IMG/VR virus record: IMGVR_UViG_3300027969_000262
Location: 1-33,836 of that record
Length of the DNA stretch: 33,836 nt
Strand: one strand, 5' to 3'
DNA from: a virus
Taxonomy: Duplodnaviria > Caudoviricetes
The notes beneath the pieces were generated by a model, which worked only from the letters and a program-made list of their open reading frames with translations, was not told where the DNA came from and searched no databases. This document shows positions 3,582-19,028 of this stretch, in pieces (the stretch's first letter is position 1; each line of letters begins with the position of its first letter). The position numbers were made by a program, and so were the translations under genes.

Positions 3582-3839
3582 TTAACACTTCCATCTTTTT
3601 AGTGATGCTGCTTTGCGGGTTGGTTTACCGTTCTCGTCTTTCATAGGGCCGGGCATTCCACTCATACGTGCACAAAATGACTTCTTACGAGGACCACCTT
3701 CAGGTTGAGGTGCTTTTAAATTAGAACCAGTTTGTGAATTATATTTAGCACGACCCTTGGCAGTTAAACCCGCACCTTTTGATACAGGTAACTTTTCTCC
3801 ACGGCCAACAGAAAGATTAACTCCTTTTTTAGTTGCCAT
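3582..3839 (-). CDS. small basic phage protein, DUF6321-like
   Basis: GLTAKGRAKYN..GSNLKAP..RKKSFCARMSG..LKRWKC signature, recognised from memory. Confidence 0.75.
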   Translation of the reverse strand: MATKKGVNLSVGRGEKLPVSKGAGLTAKGRAKYNSQTGSNLKAPQPEGGPRKKSFCARMSGMPGPMKDENGKPTRKAASLKRWKC

Positions 3840-4142: not shown

Positions 4143-7100
4143 TTAACGTTCTGTTACAAACCCTGATGCCAAACTCGGCTTAACTATACCACCTTTAATA
4201 TCTCTTTGACGCTTAAGTTGTTCTTGTGGAGCTCTAAATAGTTCTGATATTGGTTGGCGCTTGAGGCCATTTCTAACTCTAGCAAGTTGTGTATCTTCCC
4301 ATTTTCGTCTAATGTCGCCCATTTCTTCTGTGTCACCCTTACGGAATGCTTGTGTGTATTCAGTTTTTAATTCAGTAGTACGCTCACTATAGAACTTGTC
4401 AGCCTTAAATTCTGAACTCATTATAAACTGTTTATCAGTAATTTTATTAGTTGGTAAACCTAAAGCTTGGCTCATAGCATCTAATGTACTTATATCATCT
4501 GCTGATAGAACAACATCACCATTACGTTTTACAACTCCTTTGTCTAGTAACTCAAAAGCTTTAACTGCGTTACCTAATCCAGTAGGAGCAAGTGCTGCTA
4601 AACCTTTGTAGTAGTTACCTTGAGTCATAAGTCCAATACCATCAATTACTTTAGGTAGTAACCCGCCTAGGAAAGGACCCATAGAAGCAGCTAATGCTTT
4701 GGCATATCCGTCACGACTTAAGTCAATCTCTGTATATGGAAGGATAGACAACATCTGACCCATACCTAACTTACCTGATAAATCCACACCTAATAACTTA
4801 GGAATACCTTTTAGCAATACATCAGCAACTGCATTATCACCAATTATCTTGCGCAGTGTAGCTTCTGGATTATCAGGTTCATCTTCATCCCCAAATGCAG
4901 CACCAACTATCCATGCAATTGCAGCAAATCCGGGCATACCCATAACACCAGCCATGGCAAATGTATGACTTAATGTATATATGAGTGCTTTTTTACCAAC
5001 AAGACGTATCTGTTTGGTTTCTTCTGCGTTTTTACCTACTCCTTTAAAAGACTGATTAATCAATTTAGCCATTAAACTAATCTGAATTAACTGGAACTTC
5101 CTAAACTGAGTCATTAAACGACCAACACCTTGACGAGTAAATCTTGGAGCATTAAACCCTGAGTAGTCACCGTGTGTATCAATAATAACTTTATCAGCGT
5201 AAGCAATAGCGTCTGCTTGACTTGCCCCATCTTGTTTTTCTAATCGATAGGCAGCAACTGCTGTAACTACACGGTTAATAGATTCAACATCTTGCGATAT
5301 ACTTCTTAGTTTTTCTATGGCAACACTTGCAAGATTCTTTTCTTCCGTAGACTGCCAACGGCCTAAGTCACTTTCCAAACTAATATCAATACGACCTGAG
5401 TTAACCAAGGTTTCAATTGCTTCTCTTACATCTGCAGGTAACTTAGAATATGTTTTTTCATTTAAACCTTCTGAACGAATCACACTGGCAATATCTTTAT
5501 AACCCTGCATCATTGCAGAAGTTGTTTTAGCATACCCGTGTTTAGCGGCCATAACAGGCATAGACATCATGTAAGGCTGAGTTAAGTTTTGTAAATAGTA
5601 TGCAGGATTAGTTAATAGCATCCACATAGAAGTTATACCAAGGGCTTTATCTAAAAGTGGATTAGACTCATAGTTAAATGCCATGGCATGTCGTTTCATA
5701 AACTCGTTGTAATACCTACGACGATCACCACGACCAGTTGTAGAAGCATCAGCTTCTTTTTTCATATTACGTAATTGGTCATATATTGCACTGGTATTAT
5801 GTAAAGTAGATATAAAGTGTGCAGAGGCTCTACCTTGTGTGGCAAAAGAACGCATCATGTCATCTTCAGCACCAGCAATACCTTTACGACGGTTCTCAGA
5901 TTGACGAGCTGACTGGTCAGACAACAAAGCTAATTGTAAGTTTAATAAAAGACTGTCAATAGTTTTCTTAGACTTGTTACTTAAATCTCCAAGAGAATCA
6001 TCTGCCATAGTACGGAAACGTTGGAATACATCGCTTACATCTTTACCACCATACATGGCACGTTCAGCGTCATCTTTTTCAAATGGTTCTACAAAAGCGT
6101 AGTTACCTTCTTGACTACGAGCTATGGCTTTAGCTTCTGCCCATGTCTCAGCAAACTGAACAAAATAATGATCACCATCTTTCTGTAACTTCTCAATAGT
6201 CTTGCGATCTTTGGCTTCTTCAGCATTTAAATATTCTTGGGACTTACCAGCAACTACATAGTTACCAAAACGTTTTAGAGGCGCATATGGAGAATTAGCT
6301 TGCACAGACATCAAACTACGATAGTCTCTTAGTGCATCTGCCTTTTTCTTTTGTAGACTAGACACTTCTTTAGCATCTTCATCGGCTTCAGCTTCTTTAA
6401 TTAGAGCATCGTATTCTGTTGTAATGTTACTCATTACGCTTTGTTTCATATCAGACAAGGTATTAAAACCATGTTCAAATACTTTTTTAATTACTTTCTG
6501 AGCGTTGTCAGGCATTTTATTAAATCTGTCAGCTATATCTTTATCAATAGGAACAGCTTCTTTAATCCACGACGGTTGGAATCCCCATTTATTACCCATG
6601 GTAGAATCTTTTAGAAACTTATTAACGCTTCCTTCACCAGTACCTTTAACGGATTTATCTAGCTTTTCGTAATCTTGTAAAACTTCTTCAACTCTACGTT
6701 CATACTTAGTTTTTATAGCCTGACGTTCTTTCATCAAACCTACATACTTTGTTACAGATGGAATGTACTTCTGAGCAACTAGCGCTAAGTCTTCAGTAAA
6801 CGATGCCCATATAGAACCTTTTTTAGCCGCATCTTGAATTGTGTCAAATATAGCTTGAACCGGTCCTCTATAGCTAGGAGGTAGTGCATCAATTCTATTC
6901 TTGGCACCAGCACGTATAGCACTAATTGGTTGTATAGAAAACCTAATATCACTACTATCTAAATTATATGCTCCACTGTTACCAATAGCAGATTTAATTT
7001 GATTAGAACTGTAGACAGCTAAATTTCTTACACCTTTTTCTGATACATAAAACGCATCAAATTCAGAACGTTTAATTGCAGCTTGTACCTGTGGAGACTC

Positions 7101-10100
7101 TATTACAGACCACTCACCTTGTTGCAACTTATCTTCCCAATTCCACCCACTAAATTCTTTATCAAGTTCTTCTTTTTCACGTTGGAATAAATTTTGTTTG
7201 ATAAGGGCTATGTGTTTTTCTTTACTGTAATCAAATGGGTTTTCAGCACGAACAAACACAGGCATAATGTTTGCATACTTTTCTACTTCTTTAGAAGACT
7301 CTATTCCCCATTGTGCTCTTAAGTTTGCATAATCTTCAGCAAATTTAATACTACTTGTTAAAAATATAGCATTGCCTTGTTTAGGTCTAAATTCAACAAT
7401 GTCTTGTGCAGTACCGTGATACATTACTTTTGGAGTTCCATCTTGGTTAACTATTTTACTATTTCCAAACCATTTTTTAAAGTTGTTAACTGCAAAAGAA
7501 AACTGAACTTTATTAGTTGGTACTAAAATATTTTCTTGGATAACCAAATGAGCTGCACCGTAAGCCAAATCAACTACATCTTCAGCAGTTAAACTTTCAG
7601 AAGTAAATCCTAATTTTCTAAGTGCTCTTTTAAACGCACTAACTATGGAAGATAAAAATCTACCTAAAGGGGTAGGAGAATACTTAACAGTCGGGTTAAT
7701 TCCAGCTTTAACCGCTTCTTCAATAAAGTATGCAAGAAGTTCATCATTCATGGAATCTACAGATGTTTTAGCAGCAGCTACACGTTCCAATGCTTTAATA
7801 GCAATTTTGCCTTCTACAGAATTTTTATTACCAGCCCACTCATTAATCTTATCAATCAGAGTGTTAAATTCTTTATCGCCTAACATCTCTTGTAAACCTA
7901 AATGAGATCCAACTTCATGTAAGAATACAGCACGAATATCATTTGGATTAATATTATCAGCAATTAAATATGCTTTACCTGCACCAGTTACAAATCCCCC
8001 AACCCTCTCTTGGTCAGATAAAGACTGTTGAATTAGCGGTGGTAGTTGTGTAATACTTTGAACAATACGAACAACTTTACTACTGCCTAACCCAATAAAA
8101 TCTTTTAACTCGGCTGCAATCTGTGCAGTTGTAGATTTTTCAGTAGTTTTTTCTTGTTTGCTTAGTTGTAGTTTTTCTTCTTTGGCCGCAAGTTGCGTAC
8201 CTTTTGTTCCTGCTACAGTTTCAGTACCTACTTTTTCTGTAACAGTTTTTGTCTTTGGAGTAATACCTTGGCGAGCAATATCTTTTTCAAGCACGGCTTT
8301 ACCATTGACAAACTCCATTACATTTTCTTGGTTATCAGGAACTACAAACAACGTAGCGCCATTCATCTGGTTTTCATGTCCTTTGAGAACCTTACCAAAA
8401 GTATCTTTGTCTACATTAATACATCCAAACGAATACCTTGAGTTCTGCGGACCAGACTCTTTAAGTGCTTGTTGACGTTGTTGTGCATCTTTCTCGCTCA
8501 ACCATACAGAGTGCATCAATGTAGTAAAGTACTTATCTCCAGTGTTTTCATTAACACCTTCAACTCCATATACAGTATCAAAATCATACCCTTTAGTACT
8601 AGATGTATTAGTTCTTTGTACTAACTTCATTAACCCAGCAGGAGTAATCTTGTTGGCATCAATGTTGTTATCACCCTTCATGAAATCGCCAAAACTTTTA
8701 GCAACTAAAACTTTGCTTTGGAATAGTAGTGTTCCATCAGGATTAAAAATAAACTGAGTTGCTGTTGGCTTGTCAGTAATAATAAACAACTTATTTGTTT
8801 TAGCTAGTTCATCTTTAATAGTTGGATAAATAACTTCATACGCACGTTGTGCGGCAGGGGACATATTTTTAGCAACAGTGCTAGGAGCTTTTTGTATAAC
8901 TTGTTCAGTCCGAGTTTCATATGTAGGAACTATAATTTTAATAGGGTCAGAAGCTAAATTCGGATTTAATACAATAGCTATGGACATTACACCATTGGCG
9001 ATCTGCTTAATTATGTCACGTACAGCACCAGCAACTGCTTCGGCACCCTTGGTAACATACTTAAGAACATCGTCTTTAACTTTAGAAATAAATTCTTCAG
9101 TGCCACGTTTAGCTTTGTAATGCTGTTCTAATCTAGTATTTTGTGCATCTGTAAGACTGCTTGTTTGGTCGGTAATTAGTTTAACTTGTTCTTTCTCACC
9201 AACAGAAACAATACGAGCTTCACCTTCAATGGTACGAGACTCATCTGCTAGTTGTTCAGCAGTTTTACTTTCTACTTTTTGTTCTGTTTCAAATATTTTG
9301 TTGGCAGTAATTAAATTGCCTTTGTTATCTTTAACTGCAAGTGCCCAATCAGCTTTACCTGTTGGAGATAATCCATCATACTTAACAGGAGCACCTAATG
9401 CATCCCATAGTTGAGCGGCAGACTTTGTTTCCTTAGTAGTTTTTTCTTCTACTTTCGGGGCTCTTTGCTTTTTCTTTTCGACTTTGACAACAACTTCTCT
9501 GGAAGTGTTTTCGGGTTTGGCGTTTCCTTCGCCCACTGCTTGGCCACCTTCGGCTGATTTGCGAACATTTCTCTCATCTGTGCTTTGCTCTTGAAAGGCA
9601 TTTTCTGCTCCTTTTTTACTTAGGTTTTGAGTCTTAGATAACTTCTGTGCTTTCTTAGCCAAAACTTCAGCCGCAGCCAAGTCAGCTTCAAGGTCTTCTT
9701 TCTTTAGAGTTAACTCGTCTACTGTTTCAGAATCATCATTGGCAGTAGCTGCATCAATTTTAGCTTCAAGGTCTTTTATTTGTTGGATAAGCTTTACACC
9801 TTTAGTGCCAACAGATTCACCCAAGTTATATTGTTCATTAACACTAATAGACTTACGAGAAGATTCTTTAACACCAGTTTCTTCTTCCTGACCTTCTTTG
9901 TTTTTAACATTAAGTTCAACTTCATACTGACCAAGTTCTTGTTTAATCTCAGATTCTATATCTGATATGTCTGAACTTAAATCATTGTTACCAAGAGTAA
10001 GTAATTTGGCAAGAGTAGCATCGTTCTCAATGTTATACTTTTGTTTTATTTCAGCAATAATTCCCGGTAATAATTTTTTAGTTGTTTCAGACCAACCTGC

Positions 10101-12554
10101 TTTAAAATTACCTTCTTCGTCAACTATTTCTGAAGCTCTTTTTCTCCAGTTGGAAACTGTGTTTTCAGTAACCCCATACAGTGTTTTTAGTTCAACAGGA
10201 GTAAGTTGCTCGTTTAATGGAGTACTAATTAGATAAGCAAACAATCGTTTAATCTTAGGCTCTGTGTTTGCATCCATGGCATTATTTTTTACAATAATAC
10301 GGTCAGCCAACATCACAGCATAGTTAGGTTTCTCATCAAAGTCAGCTAATATATTTTTAACAAGACGACTAGTAACATTGCCTGTAGAAACTGCTCTTGT
10401 CCACTTATCCTTTAAATCTTGGGAGAGATAAGCGTAGTCAAGTCCTGTCTCTCTTCTCCAACGCTGTCCTTCAGGGGAGTTATTTTCTCTTTCGAACTGT
10501 TGTCTGTTTTGTTCAAAAAATTCATCGCTTGCTCTATCAGCATTTTCTGCCCCTTCAACTCCCCCAGCTTGGCTTTCGCCATTAGTAATTGGAAGTTGTT
10601 CATTTACTTGCCCCGTCTCTTGCCCATTAGGAACAGTACTGGTGATGGCTCCACCGGCATAATCCCGTGGCACTGCTTCTCCTCCTCCGACATCTTGCTG
10701 GCCGTTCTGGACACCATTGTCGCTTCCTGTCCCGATGGGTCGAATGCCATTGGATTGTAAAAGCCCAAGGTCTCCCGTTCCAGTTTCTGCTGCTCTTCCC
10801 TCGACTGATACATCTCCCACCCCGGCAGGCACTTGCTGTTCTGTTTGTATTCCATTTGTTTCTCCTATTAAATTATCACGAAAATTCTCTAAAAAGCCCA
10901 ACTGGGCTGCAGTACTCTTACCTTTTTTACCTTCTAAGTCTTTAATCTCTGCTTTAACACGATCAAGAACATCATCAATGTTAGTAGCACCTGCTAAGTA
11001 TGCTTCTACTTTACCAGCTAAACTCTTAGGTGTAATTGTTTTATCAGTGTTTTGATTCTTAAATGCATCTAACCAAGCAAATTCTACATGGTGTGTAAGC
11101 TCAGGTTTGGCTGCTTCTTCTACAAGTATCTTATCAACAGCTTCATTAAGCTTGTTAGTCATGCCTGAGAAATACATGTTTCCGTTAAACTTAACACCAA
11201 TCTGTGCACCCTGCTCATTAAAAACGGGAGTAGTGCCAAACTTATCTAATATTGTTTTACGAGATGCAGCTTGCTGTGCTATTTCTTCTTCAGTTTGTTG
11301 TTGTGCTTTTTGTTGATTGGCTTGTGCGTTGGCAGTGGCAACTTGTTGTGAATCTGGCCCAGCCTGTCGTTGCATTACATCAAATGCAGTCTCATCTCTT
11401 TCAACACCAGTAGCAGGGTCAGCAATCTTTCTACCTGTTGGTTCATTCATAGCAGCAGTCATATCTGCTTGCCGTTGTTTAATTAGTGCTTCTTGTTCTT
11501 TCTTCTGTCTGTCTACAACACCAACTGTTTGATTAACAATTTCTTGTGTAGATAAACCCGGACCTGCATTTACGTTAATTGCGCCTTTAATGGCATCGGC
11601 ATTTGAAGTTACATTGTTTGTATTGTTGTCAAACGAACCGCCTAATAAACTATTCTCTGGTCTACGTTCACCTGCAATTCCAGCCATACCACCACGGATA
11701 ACTCCACCACCAATACCACCTTTAATGGCTGATAGTCCGTACTCGTTATATGCTTCAGCTCCAGTTAACTCTTTAAAAGCACCGTATCTTTCAAGCCCAG
11801 TTTGTATAGTTTCTGTTCCGGCTTCTTCAGCTAGTCCTATTGCACCCTGCTTGGCTATGTTTTTTGTAAGGCTAGTACCAGCTTCTCGTTGTAAGAAACT
11901 TGAGCCTTTACCTAATACTTTATTAGTAAGTCGTTCAGCACCAAGGGCAGTGTCTAAAACAGCAGCAGCACCGCCAGTCATAAGAGCACGGCCAACATCA
12001 TTCATTCCTGCTTCTCTTTGGTCTGCTCTAATACCACCGTATTCTTGTATTAAGTTACCAACATATGCACCACCCGCACCACCAATAGTTTGTCCAACAG
12101 CTGCTCCAGCAACAGTACCAACACCCGGAACAACGGAACCTGCAACACCACCGATAGCACCACCAATAGCTCTTCCAGCCATACCAGTTAATGCTGATAT
12201 ACCAACTTGTGGAATAACTTCACCAATGGCTTCACGAGCCGTAGTAAATGGACTAGATAGTGCTTCTTCTACAGTGTTAATTTGAGATGGGTTGCGACGA
12301 ACTACTTTTTCGCCATAAGATTGAATTGCTTCACCTGTTTCTCTAGGCCCGATATCTTGTAGAGTAGAACCTAAAGCAGATATTGCTTGACCACCACCTC
12401 TTTTTATGTCCGAGATAAACCCGGGCTTAGACATCTTAGGATCTTTTTTAAGGCCAGCCTGTATTAAATCATCTTCTATATAGTTAAAAGAATTCTTATC
12501 GTTTAATAACCCAGCTTGGATTAAATCTGATTTTATATAGTCATCAAGAGGCAT
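4143..12554 (-). CDS. giant polyvalent internal-virion/ejection protein (2803 aa): Gly/Ala hydrophobic N-terminus, HTH-like motif, L,D-transpeptidase-like, zincin-like, ART-PolyVal-like and PLxRFG domains
   Basis: Motifs LMH..RYSFGCINV, VFLHEVGSHLGL, FKKWFGNSK..YHGT..NQIKSAIGN and APLKRFGNY; last gene of the ejection cluster. Confidence 0.88.
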   Translation of the reverse strand: MPLDDYIKSDLIQAGLLNDKNSFNYIEDDLIQAGLKKDPKMSKPGFISDIKRGGGQAISALGSTLQDIGPRETGEAIQSYGEKVVRRNPSQINTVEEALSSPFTTAREAIGEVIPQVGISALTGMAGRAIGGAIGGVAGSVVPGVGTVAGAAVGQTIGGAGGAYVGNLIQEYGGIRADQREAGMNDVGRALMTGGAAAVLDTALGAERLTNKVLGKGSSFLQREAGTSLTKNIAKQGAIGLAEEAGTETIQTGLERYGAFKELTGAEAYNEYGLSAIKGGIGGGVIRGGMAGIAGERRPENSLLGGSFDNNTNNVTSNADAIKGAINVNAGPGLSTQEIVNQTVGVVDRQKKEQEALIKQRQADMTAAMNEPTGRKIADPATGVERDETAFDVMQRQAGPDSQQVATANAQANQQKAQQQTEEEIAQQAASRKTILDKFGTTPVFNEQGAQIGVKFNGNMYFSGMTNKLNEAVDKILVEEAAKPELTHHVEFAWLDAFKNQNTDKTITPKSLAGKVEAYLAGATNIDDVLDRVKAEIKDLEGKKGKSTAAQLGFLENFRDNLIGETNGIQTEQQVPAGVGDVSVEGRAAETGTGDLGLLQSNGIRPIGTGSDNGVQNGQQDVGGGEAVPRDYAGGAITSTVPNGQETGQVNEQLPITNGESQAGGVEGAENADRASDEFFEQNRQQFERENNSPEGQRWRRETGLDYAYLSQDLKDKWTRAVSTGNVTSRLVKNILADFDEKPNYAVMLADRIIVKNNAMDANTEPKIKRLFAYLISTPLNEQLTPVELKTLYGVTENTVSNWRKRASEIVDEEGNFKAGWSETTKKLLPGIIAEIKQKYNIENDATLAKLLTLGNNDLSSDISDIESEIKQELGQYEVELNVKNKEGQEEETGVKESSRKSISVNEQYNLGESVGTKGVKLIQQIKDLEAKIDAATANDDSETVDELTLKKEDLEADLAAAEVLAKKAQKLSKTQNLSKKGAENAFQEQSTDERNVRKSAEGGQAVGEGNAKPENTSREVVVKVEKKKQRAPKVEEKTTKETKSAAQLWDALGAPVKYDGLSPTGKADWALAVKDNKGNLITANKIFETEQKVESKTAEQLADESRTIEGEARIVSVGEKEQVKLITDQTSSLTDAQNTRLEQHYKAKRGTEEFISKVKDDVLKYVTKGAEAVAGAVRDIIKQIANGVMSIAIVLNPNLASDPIKIIVPTYETRTEQVIQKAPSTVAKNMSPAAQRAYEVIYPTIKDELAKTNKLFIITDKPTATQFIFNPDGTLLFQSKVLVAKSFGDFMKGDNNIDANKITPAGLMKLVQRTNTSSTKGYDFDTVYGVEGVNENTGDKYFTTLMHSVWLSEKDAQQRQQALKESGPQNSRYSFGCINVDKDTFGKVLKGHENQMNGATLFVVPDNQENVMEFVNGKAVLEKDIARQGITPKTKTVTEKVGTETVAGTKGTQLAAKEEKLQLSKQEKTTEKSTTAQIAAELKDFIGLGSSKVVRIVQSITQLPPLIQQSLSDQERVGGFVTGAGKAYLIADNINPNDIRAVFLHEVGSHLGLQEMLGDKEFNTLIDKINEWAGNKNSVEGKIAIKALERVAAAKTSVDSMNDELLAYFIEEAVKAGINPTVKYSPTPLGRFLSSIVSAFKRALRKLGFTSESLTAEDVVDLAYGAAHLVIQENILVPTNKVQFSFAVNNFKKWFGNSKIVNQDGTPKVMYHGTAQDIVEFRPKQGNAIFLTSSIKFAEDYANLRAQWGIESSKEVEKYANIMPVFVRAENPFDYSKEKHIALIKQNLFQREKEELDKEFSGWNWEDKLQQGEWSVIESPQVQAAIKRSEFDAFYVSEKGVRNLAVYSSNQIKSAIGNSGAYNLDSSDIRFSIQPISAIRAGAKNRIDALPPSYRGPVQAIFDTIQDAAKKGSIWASFTEDLALVAQKYIPSVTKYVGLMKERQAIKTKYERRVEEVLQDYEKLDKSVKGTGEGSVNKFLKDSTMGNKWGFQPSWIKEAVPIDKDIADRFNKMPDNAQKVIKKVFEHGFNTLSDMKQSVMSNITTEYDALIKEAEADEDAKEVSSLQKKKADALRDYRSLMSVQANSPYAPLKRFGNYVVAGKSQEYLNAEEAKDRKTIEKLQKDGDHYFVQFAETWAEAKAIARSQEGNYAFVEPFEKDDAERAMYGGKDVSDVFQRFRTMADDSLGDLSNKSKKTIDSLLLNLQLALLSDQSARQSENRRKGIAGAEDDMMRSFATQGRASAHFISTLHNTSAIYDQLRNMKKEADASTTGRGDRRRYYNEFMKRHAMAFNYESNPLLDKALGITSMWMLLTNPAYYLQNLTQPYMMSMPVMAAKHGYAKTTSAMMQGYKDIASVIRSEGLNEKTYSKLPADVREAIETLVNSGRIDISLESDLGRWQSTEEKNLASVAIEKLRSISQDVESINRVVTAVAAYRLEKQDGASQADAIAYADKVIIDTHGDYSGFNAPRFTRQGVGRLMTQFRKFQLIQISLMAKLINQSFKGVGKNAEETKQIRLVGKKALIYTLSHTFAMAGVMGMPGFAAIAWIVGAAFGDEDEPDNPEATLRKIIGDNAVADVLLKGIPKLLGVDLSGKLGMGQMLSILPYTEIDLSRDGYAKALAASMGPFLGGLLPKVIDGIGLMTQGNYYKGLAALAPTGLGNAVKAFELLDKGVVKRNGDVVLSADDISTLDAMSQALGLPTNKITDKQFIMSSEFKADKFYSERTTELKTEYTQAFRKGDTEEMGDIRRKWEDTQLARVRNGLKRQPISELFRAPQEQLKRQRDIKGGIVKPSLASGFVTER
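9449..9601 (-). CDS. overprinted (+1 frame) small basic protein, 50 aa: MPFKSKAQMREMFANQPKVAKQWAKETPNPKTLPEKLLSKSKRKSKEPRK
   Basis: AAGGAG SD 6 nt upstream of ATG; the sequence resembles stand-alone phage MPFKSxxQ..W.KET..KLPE proteins (from memory); locally raised GC. Confidence 0.72.
   Translation of the reverse strand: MPFKSKAQMREMFANQPKVAKQWAKETPNPKTLPEKLLSKSKRKSKEPRK
10412..10603 (-). CDS. candidate overprinted (+1 frame) protein, 63 aa
   Basis: ATG immediately follows the TAA of the nested 83-aa ORF (TAAATG coupling); same +1 frame. Confidence 0.5.
   Translation of the reverse strand: MNNFQLLMAKAKLGELKGQKMLIEQAMNFLNKTDNSSKEKITPLKDSVGEERQDLTTLISPKI
10604..10855 (-). CDS. candidate overprinted (+1 frame) protein, 83 aa
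   Basis: SD AGGAGA 5 nt before ATG (TAATAGGAGAAACAAATG); region about 55% GC versus about 33% in a flanking 60-mer. Confidence 0.6.
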   Translation of the reverse strand: MEYKQNSKCLPGWEMYQSREEQQKLERETLGFYNPMAFDPSGQEATMVSRTASKMSEEEKQCHGIMPVEPSPVLFLMGKRRGK

Positions 12555-18100: not shown

Positions 18101-18637
18101 TTATCCTACCATTGTTAATGCAACAGTTTCGACATCGGCTACACGCTTGAGCCATCCTTTACCATATGTTGGGAAGTTATCCAGTGACTTGTAAAACTCT
18201 TCTTTGTTATTACTAAACTTTTTGAGCAAGTCTAATCCGTTAGCTTCTTGGATTGCCTTTATAGTTGCTGGCCCAAATATGCCATCTGAAGTTACTCTTA
18301 GCGCTTTTTGTATCATTTTACGAGCAGCGGCTGGTCCAGCATTAATAGCAAAATCAAACACGGCATAATCCACACCATTAGGTAAATCATCACCTCGAAC
18401 GGCATCCCAGTAATTTTTCTTGTATAGTGGTTTAACATCTTCTTTCTTTAACGCCTTCATATCATCCTGAGTAACAGTGTGCCCGATATATTTTTCCCAG
18501 TTAGCTTGAGTACAACCCCACATGGTGCAACCTTCACGGCCATCAGGTAAATGATTACCTTTATCACGTTGGTCATTAGTGAATCCGCCCTCATGGGCTA
18601 CAACCATAGTAAAAGATTTATCCCAATTACTTAGCAT
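18101..18637 (-). CDS. endolysin, glycoside hydrolase family 108 with C-terminal peptidoglycan-binding (PG_binding_3) region
   Basis: HEGGF..D.G, T.WG.T, YKKNYWD, FDFAINAG, DGIFGPAT and YGKGWLKRV motifs. Confidence 0.92.
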   Translation of the reverse strand: MLSNWDKSFTMVVAHEGGFTNDQRDKGNHLPDGREGCTMWGCTQANWEKYIGHTVTQDDMKALKKEDVKPLYKKNYWDAVRGDDLPNGVDYAVFDFAINAGPAAARKMIQKALRVTSDGIFGPATIKAIQEANGLDLLKKFSNNKEEFYKSLDNFPTYGKGWLKRVADVETVALTMVG

Positions 18638-19028
18638 TTTTCTTCATCTCCATAACCTTCTCCAGTGTCCTACCACCAAAGTAAAAGCTCATAATTAACA
18701 TGCCCCATTGGCCTAGTAGCTCGACATAATTGTTGTTTACCTCAATATCCCAAGCGGACATCATGCCAAAGACTGTATAGGTGATTAGAATGAATATAAG
18801 GGTCATAGGGCGAATGTTCTTAGATAGCCAAGAGTCTGACATCATATCTGCTTGAACACGCTTAGTCAGTTCTTGCTGTTCGCTTACATCTGCTTGTAGT
18901 TGAGCCAGCTCACCGTTTTGGGCTAGTGTTGCTAATTCCAACTGTGCCTTAGCTTTAGCCTCTGGATCGGGGATTAGCTTATCAATTAACTTACCACCAA
19001 TATTAAGTATTGCATCAAGTCCTAACAT
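18627..19028 (-). CDS. holin-like protein (GTA 3TM holin family)
   Basis: LIDKLIPDPEAKAKAQLEL, D..SDSWLSKNIRP, two TM segments, FYFGGRTLEK; adjacent to the endolysin. Confidence 0.85.
   Translation of the reverse strand: MLGLDAILNIGGKLIDKLIPDPEAKAKAQLELATLAQNGELAQLQADVSEQQELTKRVQADMMSDSWLSKNIRPMTLIFILITYTVFGMMSAWDIEVNNNYVELLGQWGMLIMSFYFGGRTLEKVMEMKKNAK

Follow-up and report, generated by a model that had tools for sequence, protein, structure and literature searches.

A 50-codon gene of the phrog_1375 family, kept by selection, nested out of frame in a giant phage virion gene and probably engulfed by it

In the window, by which we mean the whole stretch of 33,836 nucleotides analyzed here, a 50-codon gene of the phage protein family phrog_1375 lies wholly inside the gene for a 2803-residue virion protein, in the +1 frame of that gene (Table 1). 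The explanation that we favor overall, on balance, is that this open reading frame (ORF) is a real nested gene kept by selection, that ribosomes likely start on it at a binding site of its own, that it was likely engulfed by the giant gene, and that its product is a predicted two-helix, basic, DNA-binding protein that would assist head assembly or packaging without being required for it. Nested genes are known, and the textbook route to them is the birth of a new frame on an old gene. Here, one family was found free, in a scaffold-position gene, and in several giant genes, as a single copy per genome and with broken and lost states.

The window is an entire virus record (33.8 kb, 58% complete) and is present in freshwater metagenomes. 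None of the 22 runs listed for it is an RNA run, which says nothing about expression. Its gene content is that of a podovirus virion module: portal, capsid (phrog_267), adaptor, tail fibers, lysis genes, phrog_511, an acetyltransferase, an ejection-type protein, and the giant gene. Because the giant gene is placed after the phrog_8003/4287 and phrog_511 genes, its product is likely ejected together with the DNA. Codons 985–1036 of the giant gene overlap the small gene as its shadow and encode a polar linker.

Table 1. Coordinates of the giant gene, the ORFs nested in it, and associated features in the window.
Feature	Position	Strand	Evidence or remark
Host gene, 2803-aa virion protein, likely of DNA-ejection type; C-terminal part phrog_10089 (DarB-like)	4143..12554	(-)	
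ART-PolyVal domain of host protein, aa 1703-1862	6969..7448	(-)	Pfam PF18760, E 1e-19
Nested small gene, 50 aa, phrog_1375 family	9449..9601	(-)	ORF list, profile match, selection tests
Shine-Dalgarno-like AGGAG of nested small gene	9608..9612	(-)	GGAG end to ATG = 6 nt
Third +1-frame ORF, 63 aa, directly after stop of second; doubtful	10412..10603	(-)	
Second nested gene, 83 aa, same +1 frame	10604..10855	(-)	conserved in related giant genes
Shine-Dalgarno-like AGGAG of second nested gene	10862..10866	(-)	strong SD-like site

The nested peptide (50 residues, 5.9 kDa, pI 10.7) contains 15 Lys and Arg residues against four Asp and Glu residues. The earlier note had reported a Lys-rich ORF of 50 residues at this place, and exactly the same peptide was found on the minus strand; the span it gave, 9449..9612, holds at its 9449 end, but its other end takes in the AGGAG. 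When the host gene was re-coded synonymously at random, the 50 codons stayed open in 195 of 2000 trials, with a mean identity of 41%. The real giant gene contains two +1-frame ATG ORFs of at least 50 codons preceded by a Shine–Dalgarno (SD)-like site, against a mean of 0.14 over 300 re-codings, and a count of two was matched in two of these 300. A structure model of the peptide (mean pLDDT 76) has helices at residues 6–15 and 17–26 and a Lys-rich tail without predicted structure. Searches near the nested genes for internal promoters and terminators gave five and two sites, with 3.0 and 2.0 expected, and folding of the start regions was no stronger than in shuffled sequence. An A-run lies upstream of the nested start in the window; it is not conserved among relatives.

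Among the PHROG profiles, the nested peptide matched phrog_1375, which is listed there with unknown function, over residues 3–47 (E 2.3e-5), so the widespread phage family named in the earlier note is real. The same family was matched by 54 of 67 aligned relatives at E ≤ 0.1. The 50-residue peptide as query yielded 18 database proteins at E ≤ 0.001, and the 67-row alignment yielded 855 proteins in a word-indexed search, as well as 4008 clusters at 50% identity. In IMG/VR, 480 of the 600 stretches scanned encode a relative, and about 1700 with a pattern match are estimated. Annotated stand-alone members include Barnyard gp9, Indlulamithi gp3, Gordonia MScarn gp4, FlowerPower gp48, and a gene of 023Pt_psg01, and the copies in P-RSP2 and C75C1 are free yet unannotated. 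Free copies occur in actinophages, a cyanophage, and bacterial contigs, those of cultured actinophages lying mostly near head genes. Barnyard gp9 as query matched 486 phage records, including Patience gp10 and the cluster B gp75-type genes. All three types match phrog_1375 strongly (Phipps gp75, E 3e-37; Patience gp10, 1e-31; Barnyard gp9, 3e-24), although Patience gp10 is a distant member that scores 11 bits on the alignment profile. Members from actinophages carry N-terminal extensions in place of the Met-Pro start.

No relative with a solved structure was found. The window peptide matched no Pfam family, and sequence searches of solved structures gave two chains at E 1.3 and otherwise only summed weak repeats of designed propellers. 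A fold search against the PDB returned nothing at E ≤ 0.001 and one chain at Z 2.1; in a viral library, the top rows were uncharacterized phage proteins, none at E ≤ 0.001. These blank structure and fold searches are no demonstration of a new fold. The nearest named cluster by language-model features was DUF3008 (PF11450; score 0.87, 161 of 256 shared), which we treat as a lead only, the score being below the 0.9 level and none of the 67 members matching PF11450 at E ≤ 1. Literature searches by motif, family names, and topic returned no paper on the phrog_1375 family; supplements of small-protein surveys, which lay outside these searches, could list it. A search for Elemovirus proteomics likewise found no paper.

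We located 194 loci at which the ORF is complete; 80 of these came from a ranking by similarity to the window peptide and the others from a 24-base pattern, and duplicates are counted. The small gene was free in 105, lay 20–80 codons into a gene of about 400 codons in 61, and was deep inside giant genes in 28. The description of the protein as normally free-standing is borne out by the free annotated genes but is too strong, given 89 nested loci against the 105 free ones. All nested copies are in the +1 frame of their host gene. The host of about 400 codons is placed between the portal (phrog_6547) and capsid (phrog_13704) genes, and we call it the scaffold gene by this position only. With the overlap masked, BLAST linked it to no giant host, linked the giants at four loci (L024, L025, L211, and L220) to nothing, and joined the window-type and Bacteroidota-type giants by one internal stretch only. 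The match list from GenBank includes 68 Flavobacterium Elemovirus records. The annotated phrog_1375 members examined are stand-alone genes, whereas in two GenBank records, one of them an Elemovirus and the other MW202828, a nested copy sits unannotated inside a CDS of 3694 or 3859 residues.

Nested copies recurred when loci were chosen without reference to the small ORF. Giant genes fetched by the C-terminal 910 residues of the host contained it in four cases out of four. A search via the second nested gene gave 61 loci (41 distinct), with the small ORF nested in 51, absent from four, and the remaining six ending too early; related giants picked in this way therefore carry a nested copy in 51 of 55 cases. 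Related giant virion genes thus hide the same ORF. Both conditions that the earlier note had set for its own refutation, a lack of annotated stand-alone homologs and a lack of conservation in related giants, are contradicted by these data. For the scaffold gene, 80 loci were fetched by capsid protein: the gene contained an intact copy of the small ORF in 54 (one degenerate), a shortened copy in one, and no copy in 25.

Selection on the small frame was assessed in 12 independent pairs of giant genes, found by way of the second nested gene and paired according to the distance between their flanks. At host third positions, which are the second positions of the small gene, 31 of 396 codons differ within the overlap, as opposed to 128 of 384 in the upstream flank and 127 of 463 in the downstream one, that is, 0.08 differences per site against 0.33 and 0.27 (Fisher p 1.6e-20, with sites treated as independent). 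Host amino acids in the same pairs differ at 0.21 of positions in the overlap and at 0.19 and 0.15 in the flanks. In 23 scaffold-gene pairs picked by capsid protein, host third-position differences were 0.17 in the overlap versus 0.38 and 0.35 in the flanks. Across 34 codons of 40 distinct copies, conservation was 76% in the small frame and 62% in the host frame. An SD-like site precedes 42 of 51 nested homologs but only 322 of 3742 other +1-frame ATGs, and the starts of the 51 nested copies are 47 ATG and four GTG codons. Of three variants seen within the ORF in other freshwater runs, two leave the small protein unchanged, and each of the three alters the host protein. The frozen host wobble, the kept SD-like site, and the variant pattern together indicate that the nested frame encodes a protein under purifying selection with a start signal of its own, and we consider its independent translation very probable on these sequence grounds. 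An A at position −3, present in 47 of 60 Bacteroidota-type nested starts, was left out as evidence because acidic host codons place an A there regardless.

The small gene appears to change its surroundings, its allele, and its presence. It occurs once in each of 25 records examined (16 of which are at least 90% complete), and the gene that hosts it varies among related phages. Among 13 records without a good scaffold-gene copy, four (three distinct) carry the small gene inside a frame that is open for at least 1000 codons; one further match is a broken scaffold-gene copy, and eight are without a copy, seven of these being fragments. Five of seven copies in Bacteroidota-type giants score nearest to a copy nested in the scaffold gene, above any free or window-type copy. 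At one locus (L093), a free copy lies 9 nt beyond the stop of a giant gene that has homologs among the hosts of nested copies. Two close pairs of scaffold genes, L273/L275 and L287/L291, hold very different alleles of the small gene. Four related giants are without the segment, and no copy of the small gene was detected anywhere in the records of these four; L340 has another linker at the same spot. Since three of the four records are at least 90% complete, the small gene is not essential; it and the host segment are each dispensable in some lineages.

A property of the genetic code may explain the constant choice of frame. A stop in the host frame requires a T at the third position of a small-gene codon, so host-frame stops can always be removed by silent change; among 159 distinct coding sequences, unavoidable stops were present in none in the host frame and in 65 in the other frame. 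The shadow is rich in Glu, Gln, Ala, Val, Gly, Ser, and Lys, the Lys codons of the small gene being read there as Glu, Gln, or Lys. Whereas the small protein has a mean net charge of +12 to +14, its shadow averages −12 where the host is a scaffold gene, −3 where it is a giant, and −2 where the copy is free; in the window, the shadow is not acidic (+2). Many free copies are already arranged for fusion in this frame: the stop overlaps a start in the host-type frame in 37 of 64, and the host-type frame is open throughout in 19 of 64, of which 16 are coupled. Coupled free copies with an open host-type frame are ready-made intermediates for a fusion across the small gene.

These observations point to engulfment, in which a giant virion gene likely came to read through the small gene in the −1 frame. 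Loss of a stop or a small indel upstream would fuse coupled neighbors across the small gene, and the route would be cheap, host-frame stops being silently removable and free copies often being coupled to the next gene in that frame. Translation of the nested gene would then likely start on the late mRNA at the gene's own ribosome-binding site. The same arrangement would result if the segment were inserted into a linker already present, and the swapped alleles suggest that such insertion occurs. Because silent changes are always enough to open the −1 shadow, which encodes a polar linker, we think it quite probable that the small frame is older than the linker of its host. The distribution criterion for the order of overlapping frames (PMC8227390) supports the same order for this stretch, since the nested frame is widely distributed (4008 clusters, free in many lineages) while the host segment is replaceable and absent from some hosts. 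The suggestion in the earlier note that the small gene is ancestral and the linker overprinted gains good support from this criterion; the direction is deduced, the peptide being too short for a decisive tree. A quick tree of the family, built on 47 columns, left 79 of 120 forks open, and a single clade of all nested copies was rejected at the borderline (p-AU 0.0485, with the long branches L294, L120, and L170 left out and the rows thinned to 51).

Two other readings of the nested ORF and its history were weighed against this evidence. The ORF might not be translated by itself, being instead a relic preserved because the host protein is constrained, or the end of a giant protein made by frameshifting, and both the A-run before the start in the window and the broken scaffold-gene copies (L271, L315, and L238) would fit such an origin. 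The frozen position, however, is the host wobble, which constraint on the host protein cannot produce; the ATG exchanges with GTG while the SD-like site is kept; the A-run is not conserved in relatives; and the freshwater variants spare the small gene more often than the host. We consider this reading very improbable. A reversed genealogy, with the family born by +1 overprinting in a Glu-rich linker of a scaffold or ejection gene (GAA runs being read as Lys) and the free copies escaping later, seems unlikely to us, although less so. It draws on +1 being the commonest frame for de novo overlaps (PMC8227390), on the 89 nested copies among the 194 loci, and on the GC-rich free copies. Stop-making Ts in these number 58 of 548 versus 160 of 781 elsewhere, half as many, which could be a relic of nesting, and the shadow frame is open over the coding sequence in 28 of 54. 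AT-rich free copies carry no such relic: their stop-making Ts are not depleted (125 of 258 versus 159 of 298), and none of 22 is open. Moreover, free copies cover far more lineages than any one host segment, hosts without the segment exist, and a single birth would still require later moves into unrelated hosts, which is engulfment again.

The engulfment reading extends to a wider claim, to which we assign about even chances: that the microproteins of this ancient and very large phage family enter, each as one unit, the disordered linkers of structural genes unrelated to one another, and do so only in the frame that yields a harmless polar or acidic spacer, so that a putative DNA-binding head protein is hidden from annotation, also in cultured Elemoviruses. 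If this is true, the linkers of scaffold and ejection proteins would be landing sites where entire genes are concealed, two or three of them in this giant, and the process would be the reverse of overprinting, repeated and traceable from free to nested within one family.

For the function of the small protein, we tentatively favor, from charge and context, a DNA-binding accessory of head assembly that acts in or around the prohead. The predicted small, two-helix, basic protein would bind DNA and assist head assembly or packaging in a dispensable role, and its near-invariant N-terminal Met-Pro would explain why it is kept as a separate gene rather than as an in-frame domain. The hosts of nested copies are head or virion genes, and 12 of 18 free viral loci have a terminase, portal, capsid, or head-closure match among hand-picked neighbors; in cluster B mycobacteriophages, the gene lies away from the head genes (Phipps gp75). 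The peptide accompanies unrelated capsid families (phrog_267, phrog_13704, phrog_9953, and phrog_1357), which suggests a universal ligand. Two of ten non-phage bacterial copies adjoin an ATP-dependent DNA ligase, one of them also near Ku. Mass spectrometry of Patience (PMC4324244, Table S1) records gp10 as expressed, with one stringent spectrum in particles, four at 30 min, and two at 2.5 h, and gives 33 particle spectra for gp111, a shorter and also basic protein. Abundant packaging of gp10 is therefore doubtful. Further, 61 of 146 newly listed matches are at least 100 residues long, and in 60 of these 61 the module falls within the first 16 residues, fused to DUF5661, ParB-like, and other parts. 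This N-terminal placement supports the need for a free N-terminus, and it also keeps alive a role as a docking tag.

Such a tag, by which the N-terminal module would bring itself or a fused cargo into the head via the capsid, portal, or scaffold, is modeled on the T4 capsid-targeting sequence, and the fused proteins just described speak for it. A K-x-A/ES/EA motif, which may be read as a protease site, also follows the module in 34 of 58 cases versus 60 of 541 background windows, the motif having been chosen after viewing the sequences. The same peptide nevertheless stands alongside unrelated capsid families and in bacteria without phage neighbors, which a universal ligand fits better, and we regard a tag as somewhat unlikely. 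Only slightly more credible is an unpackaged cytoplasmic effector that, late in infection, would bind the ribosome, a host RNA, or some other conserved machine of the host. Consistent with it, more spectra of Patience gp10 came from infected cells than from particles (PMC4324244, Table S1), non-phage bacterial copies with long Lys/Arg tails exist, and the divergent alleles in the related scaffold genes of L273/L275 and L287/L291 would be expected if a host target drove their exchange. Against it, most loci examined are placed in head and virion modules, and a Pfam search with the 67 members at E ≤ 1 returned no ArfA or ribosomal-protein match. The DNA-binding head accessory keeps its place as our tentative choice.

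The architecture works like that of lambda Rz1 in Rz or of phiX174 gene E in gene D by analogy; the small gene is a member of neither system. As with Rz1, a small gene lies wholly inside a larger one on the same strand, in the +1 frame and over a tolerant linker (PMC6139136). Rz and Rz1 are partners in one complex, whereas the nested peptide has no evident lipoprotein or membrane role. We rejected its identification as an embedded spanin: it has no Cys or hydrophobic signal, its host is the giant virion protein, and the lysis genes of the window lie elsewhere (18101–19028). Read-through of a stop is envisaged as one route to embedding by Kongari et al. (2018), who state that no spanin family combined embedded with overlapped or separated members (PMC6139136). 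The family phrog_1375 differs: some of its members are embedded and others separate, and its hosts include at least two genes that are unrelated. Being mixed in this way, as no spanin family is reported to be (PMC6139136), it makes the origin of embedded genes testable by comparison and in cultured phages.

Gene E resembles the small gene in being nested in a head-assembly gene, the scaffolding gene D, and on the same mRNA (PMC8227390). In classical overprinting, the older frame is that of the host and the new one is narrowly distributed; here, the nested frame is wide and the host segment replaceable, a distribution that does not fit a classical de novo overprinted gene. The capsid accessory protein gp4 of Patience/Adjutor is likewise a small phage head accessory, unstructured when free (PMC11965321). 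Kinship with gp4 was rejected: gp4 belongs to phrog_12672, does not match the family profile, and no solved chain did so; the family member in Patience is gp10. Embedded out-of-frame expression has been seen in Patience, for ORFs reported to be without database relatives (PMC4324244). The present case means that a conserved protein is missed by gene callers in abundant freshwater and marine podoviruses, and that the "disordered linker" of ejection and scaffold proteins is partly shaped by another gene.

The giant gene contains two further +1-frame ORFs. The third is doubtful: its position recurs in relatives, and its window sequence is without visible resemblance to theirs. The second belongs to no PHROG or named family. 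With the protein of the window alone as query, two loci were found, and an alignment was used for the search that gave 61; all 61 lie in long host frames, with no free-standing copy among them. The second nested protein has 18 invariant columns in an 11-row alignment, and 65 database proteins match it.

The giant virion-protein gene that encloses the 50-aa small gene contains further nested ORFs (Table). The 83-aa second nested gene matched 65 database proteins, one of which (P0310) bears the source label "ribosomal protein S16", probably a wrong name. The position of the third ORF is occupied in four relatives (loci L002, L003, L004, and L009) by mutually related ORFs of 56–66 aa, which the window's own third ORF does not visibly resemble. 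Extra +1-frame ORFs were also seen in other giant genes. An ORF of 35–39 aa, preceded by a Shine–Dalgarno-like site, is common to those of L088, L143, and L216 (host codons 455–545), where it replaces the 83-aa gene, and the Elemovirus giant gene (L081) has an additional Lys-rich ORF of 40 codons with an A-rich leader at host codon 891.

Table. Coordinates of nested, adjacent, and antisense features.
Feature	Locus	Position	Strand	Remark
Second nested gene, 83 aa	window	10604–10855	-	conserved; inside same giant gene as 50-aa gene
Third +1-frame ORF	window	10412–10603	-	starts immediately past end of second nested gene
DUF6321 gene, stand-alone	window	3582–3839	-	after giant gene
Antisense ORF, 231 codons	window	11590–12285	+	opposite Gly/Ala-rich N-terminal part of giant gene
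Free small-gene copy	L093	5660–5809	-	9 nt past stop of phrog_32588 giant gene
Basic +1 ORFs in scaffold-position genes	L118, L321	host codons 94–97		
Basic +1 ORFs in scaffold-position genes	L259, L260, L273, L275	host codons 96–100		

Small-gene alleles were very different despite near-identical scaffold neighbourhoods in two pairs of loci (L273 versus L275 and L287 versus L291), which suggests that the nested segment is exchanged. In six loci (L271, L315, L294, L251, L253, and L238), the host frame was intact but the nested copy was broken or decayed, through a lost start, an early stop, or degenerate sequence. Basic +1-frame ORFs of 27–39 codons recur 3' of the small nested gene in scaffold-position genes. 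The small gene also occurs as a free copy in L093, beside a giant gene whose homologues in L108 and L134 both carry it internally.

The small-gene family includes an apparently non-phage bacterial branch (L230, L231, L235, L239, L244, L248, and others) with long Lys/Arg tails, found in bins of Acidobacteriota, Gemmatimonadota, and others. Two of its copies adjoin an ATP-dependent DNA ligase, one of them also lying near Ku. Among database proteins P0134–P0279, many longer ones (up to 980 aa) begin with the module, the N-terminal part of the small protein, often followed by a K-x-A or ES motif; fusion partners include DUF5661 and a ParB-like domain.

Elsewhere in the window, the antisense ORF over the giant gene is probably a shadow. 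The DUF6321 domain matches far longer PHROG profiles at their C-terminal ends (438–525 of 525; 859–928 of 928).
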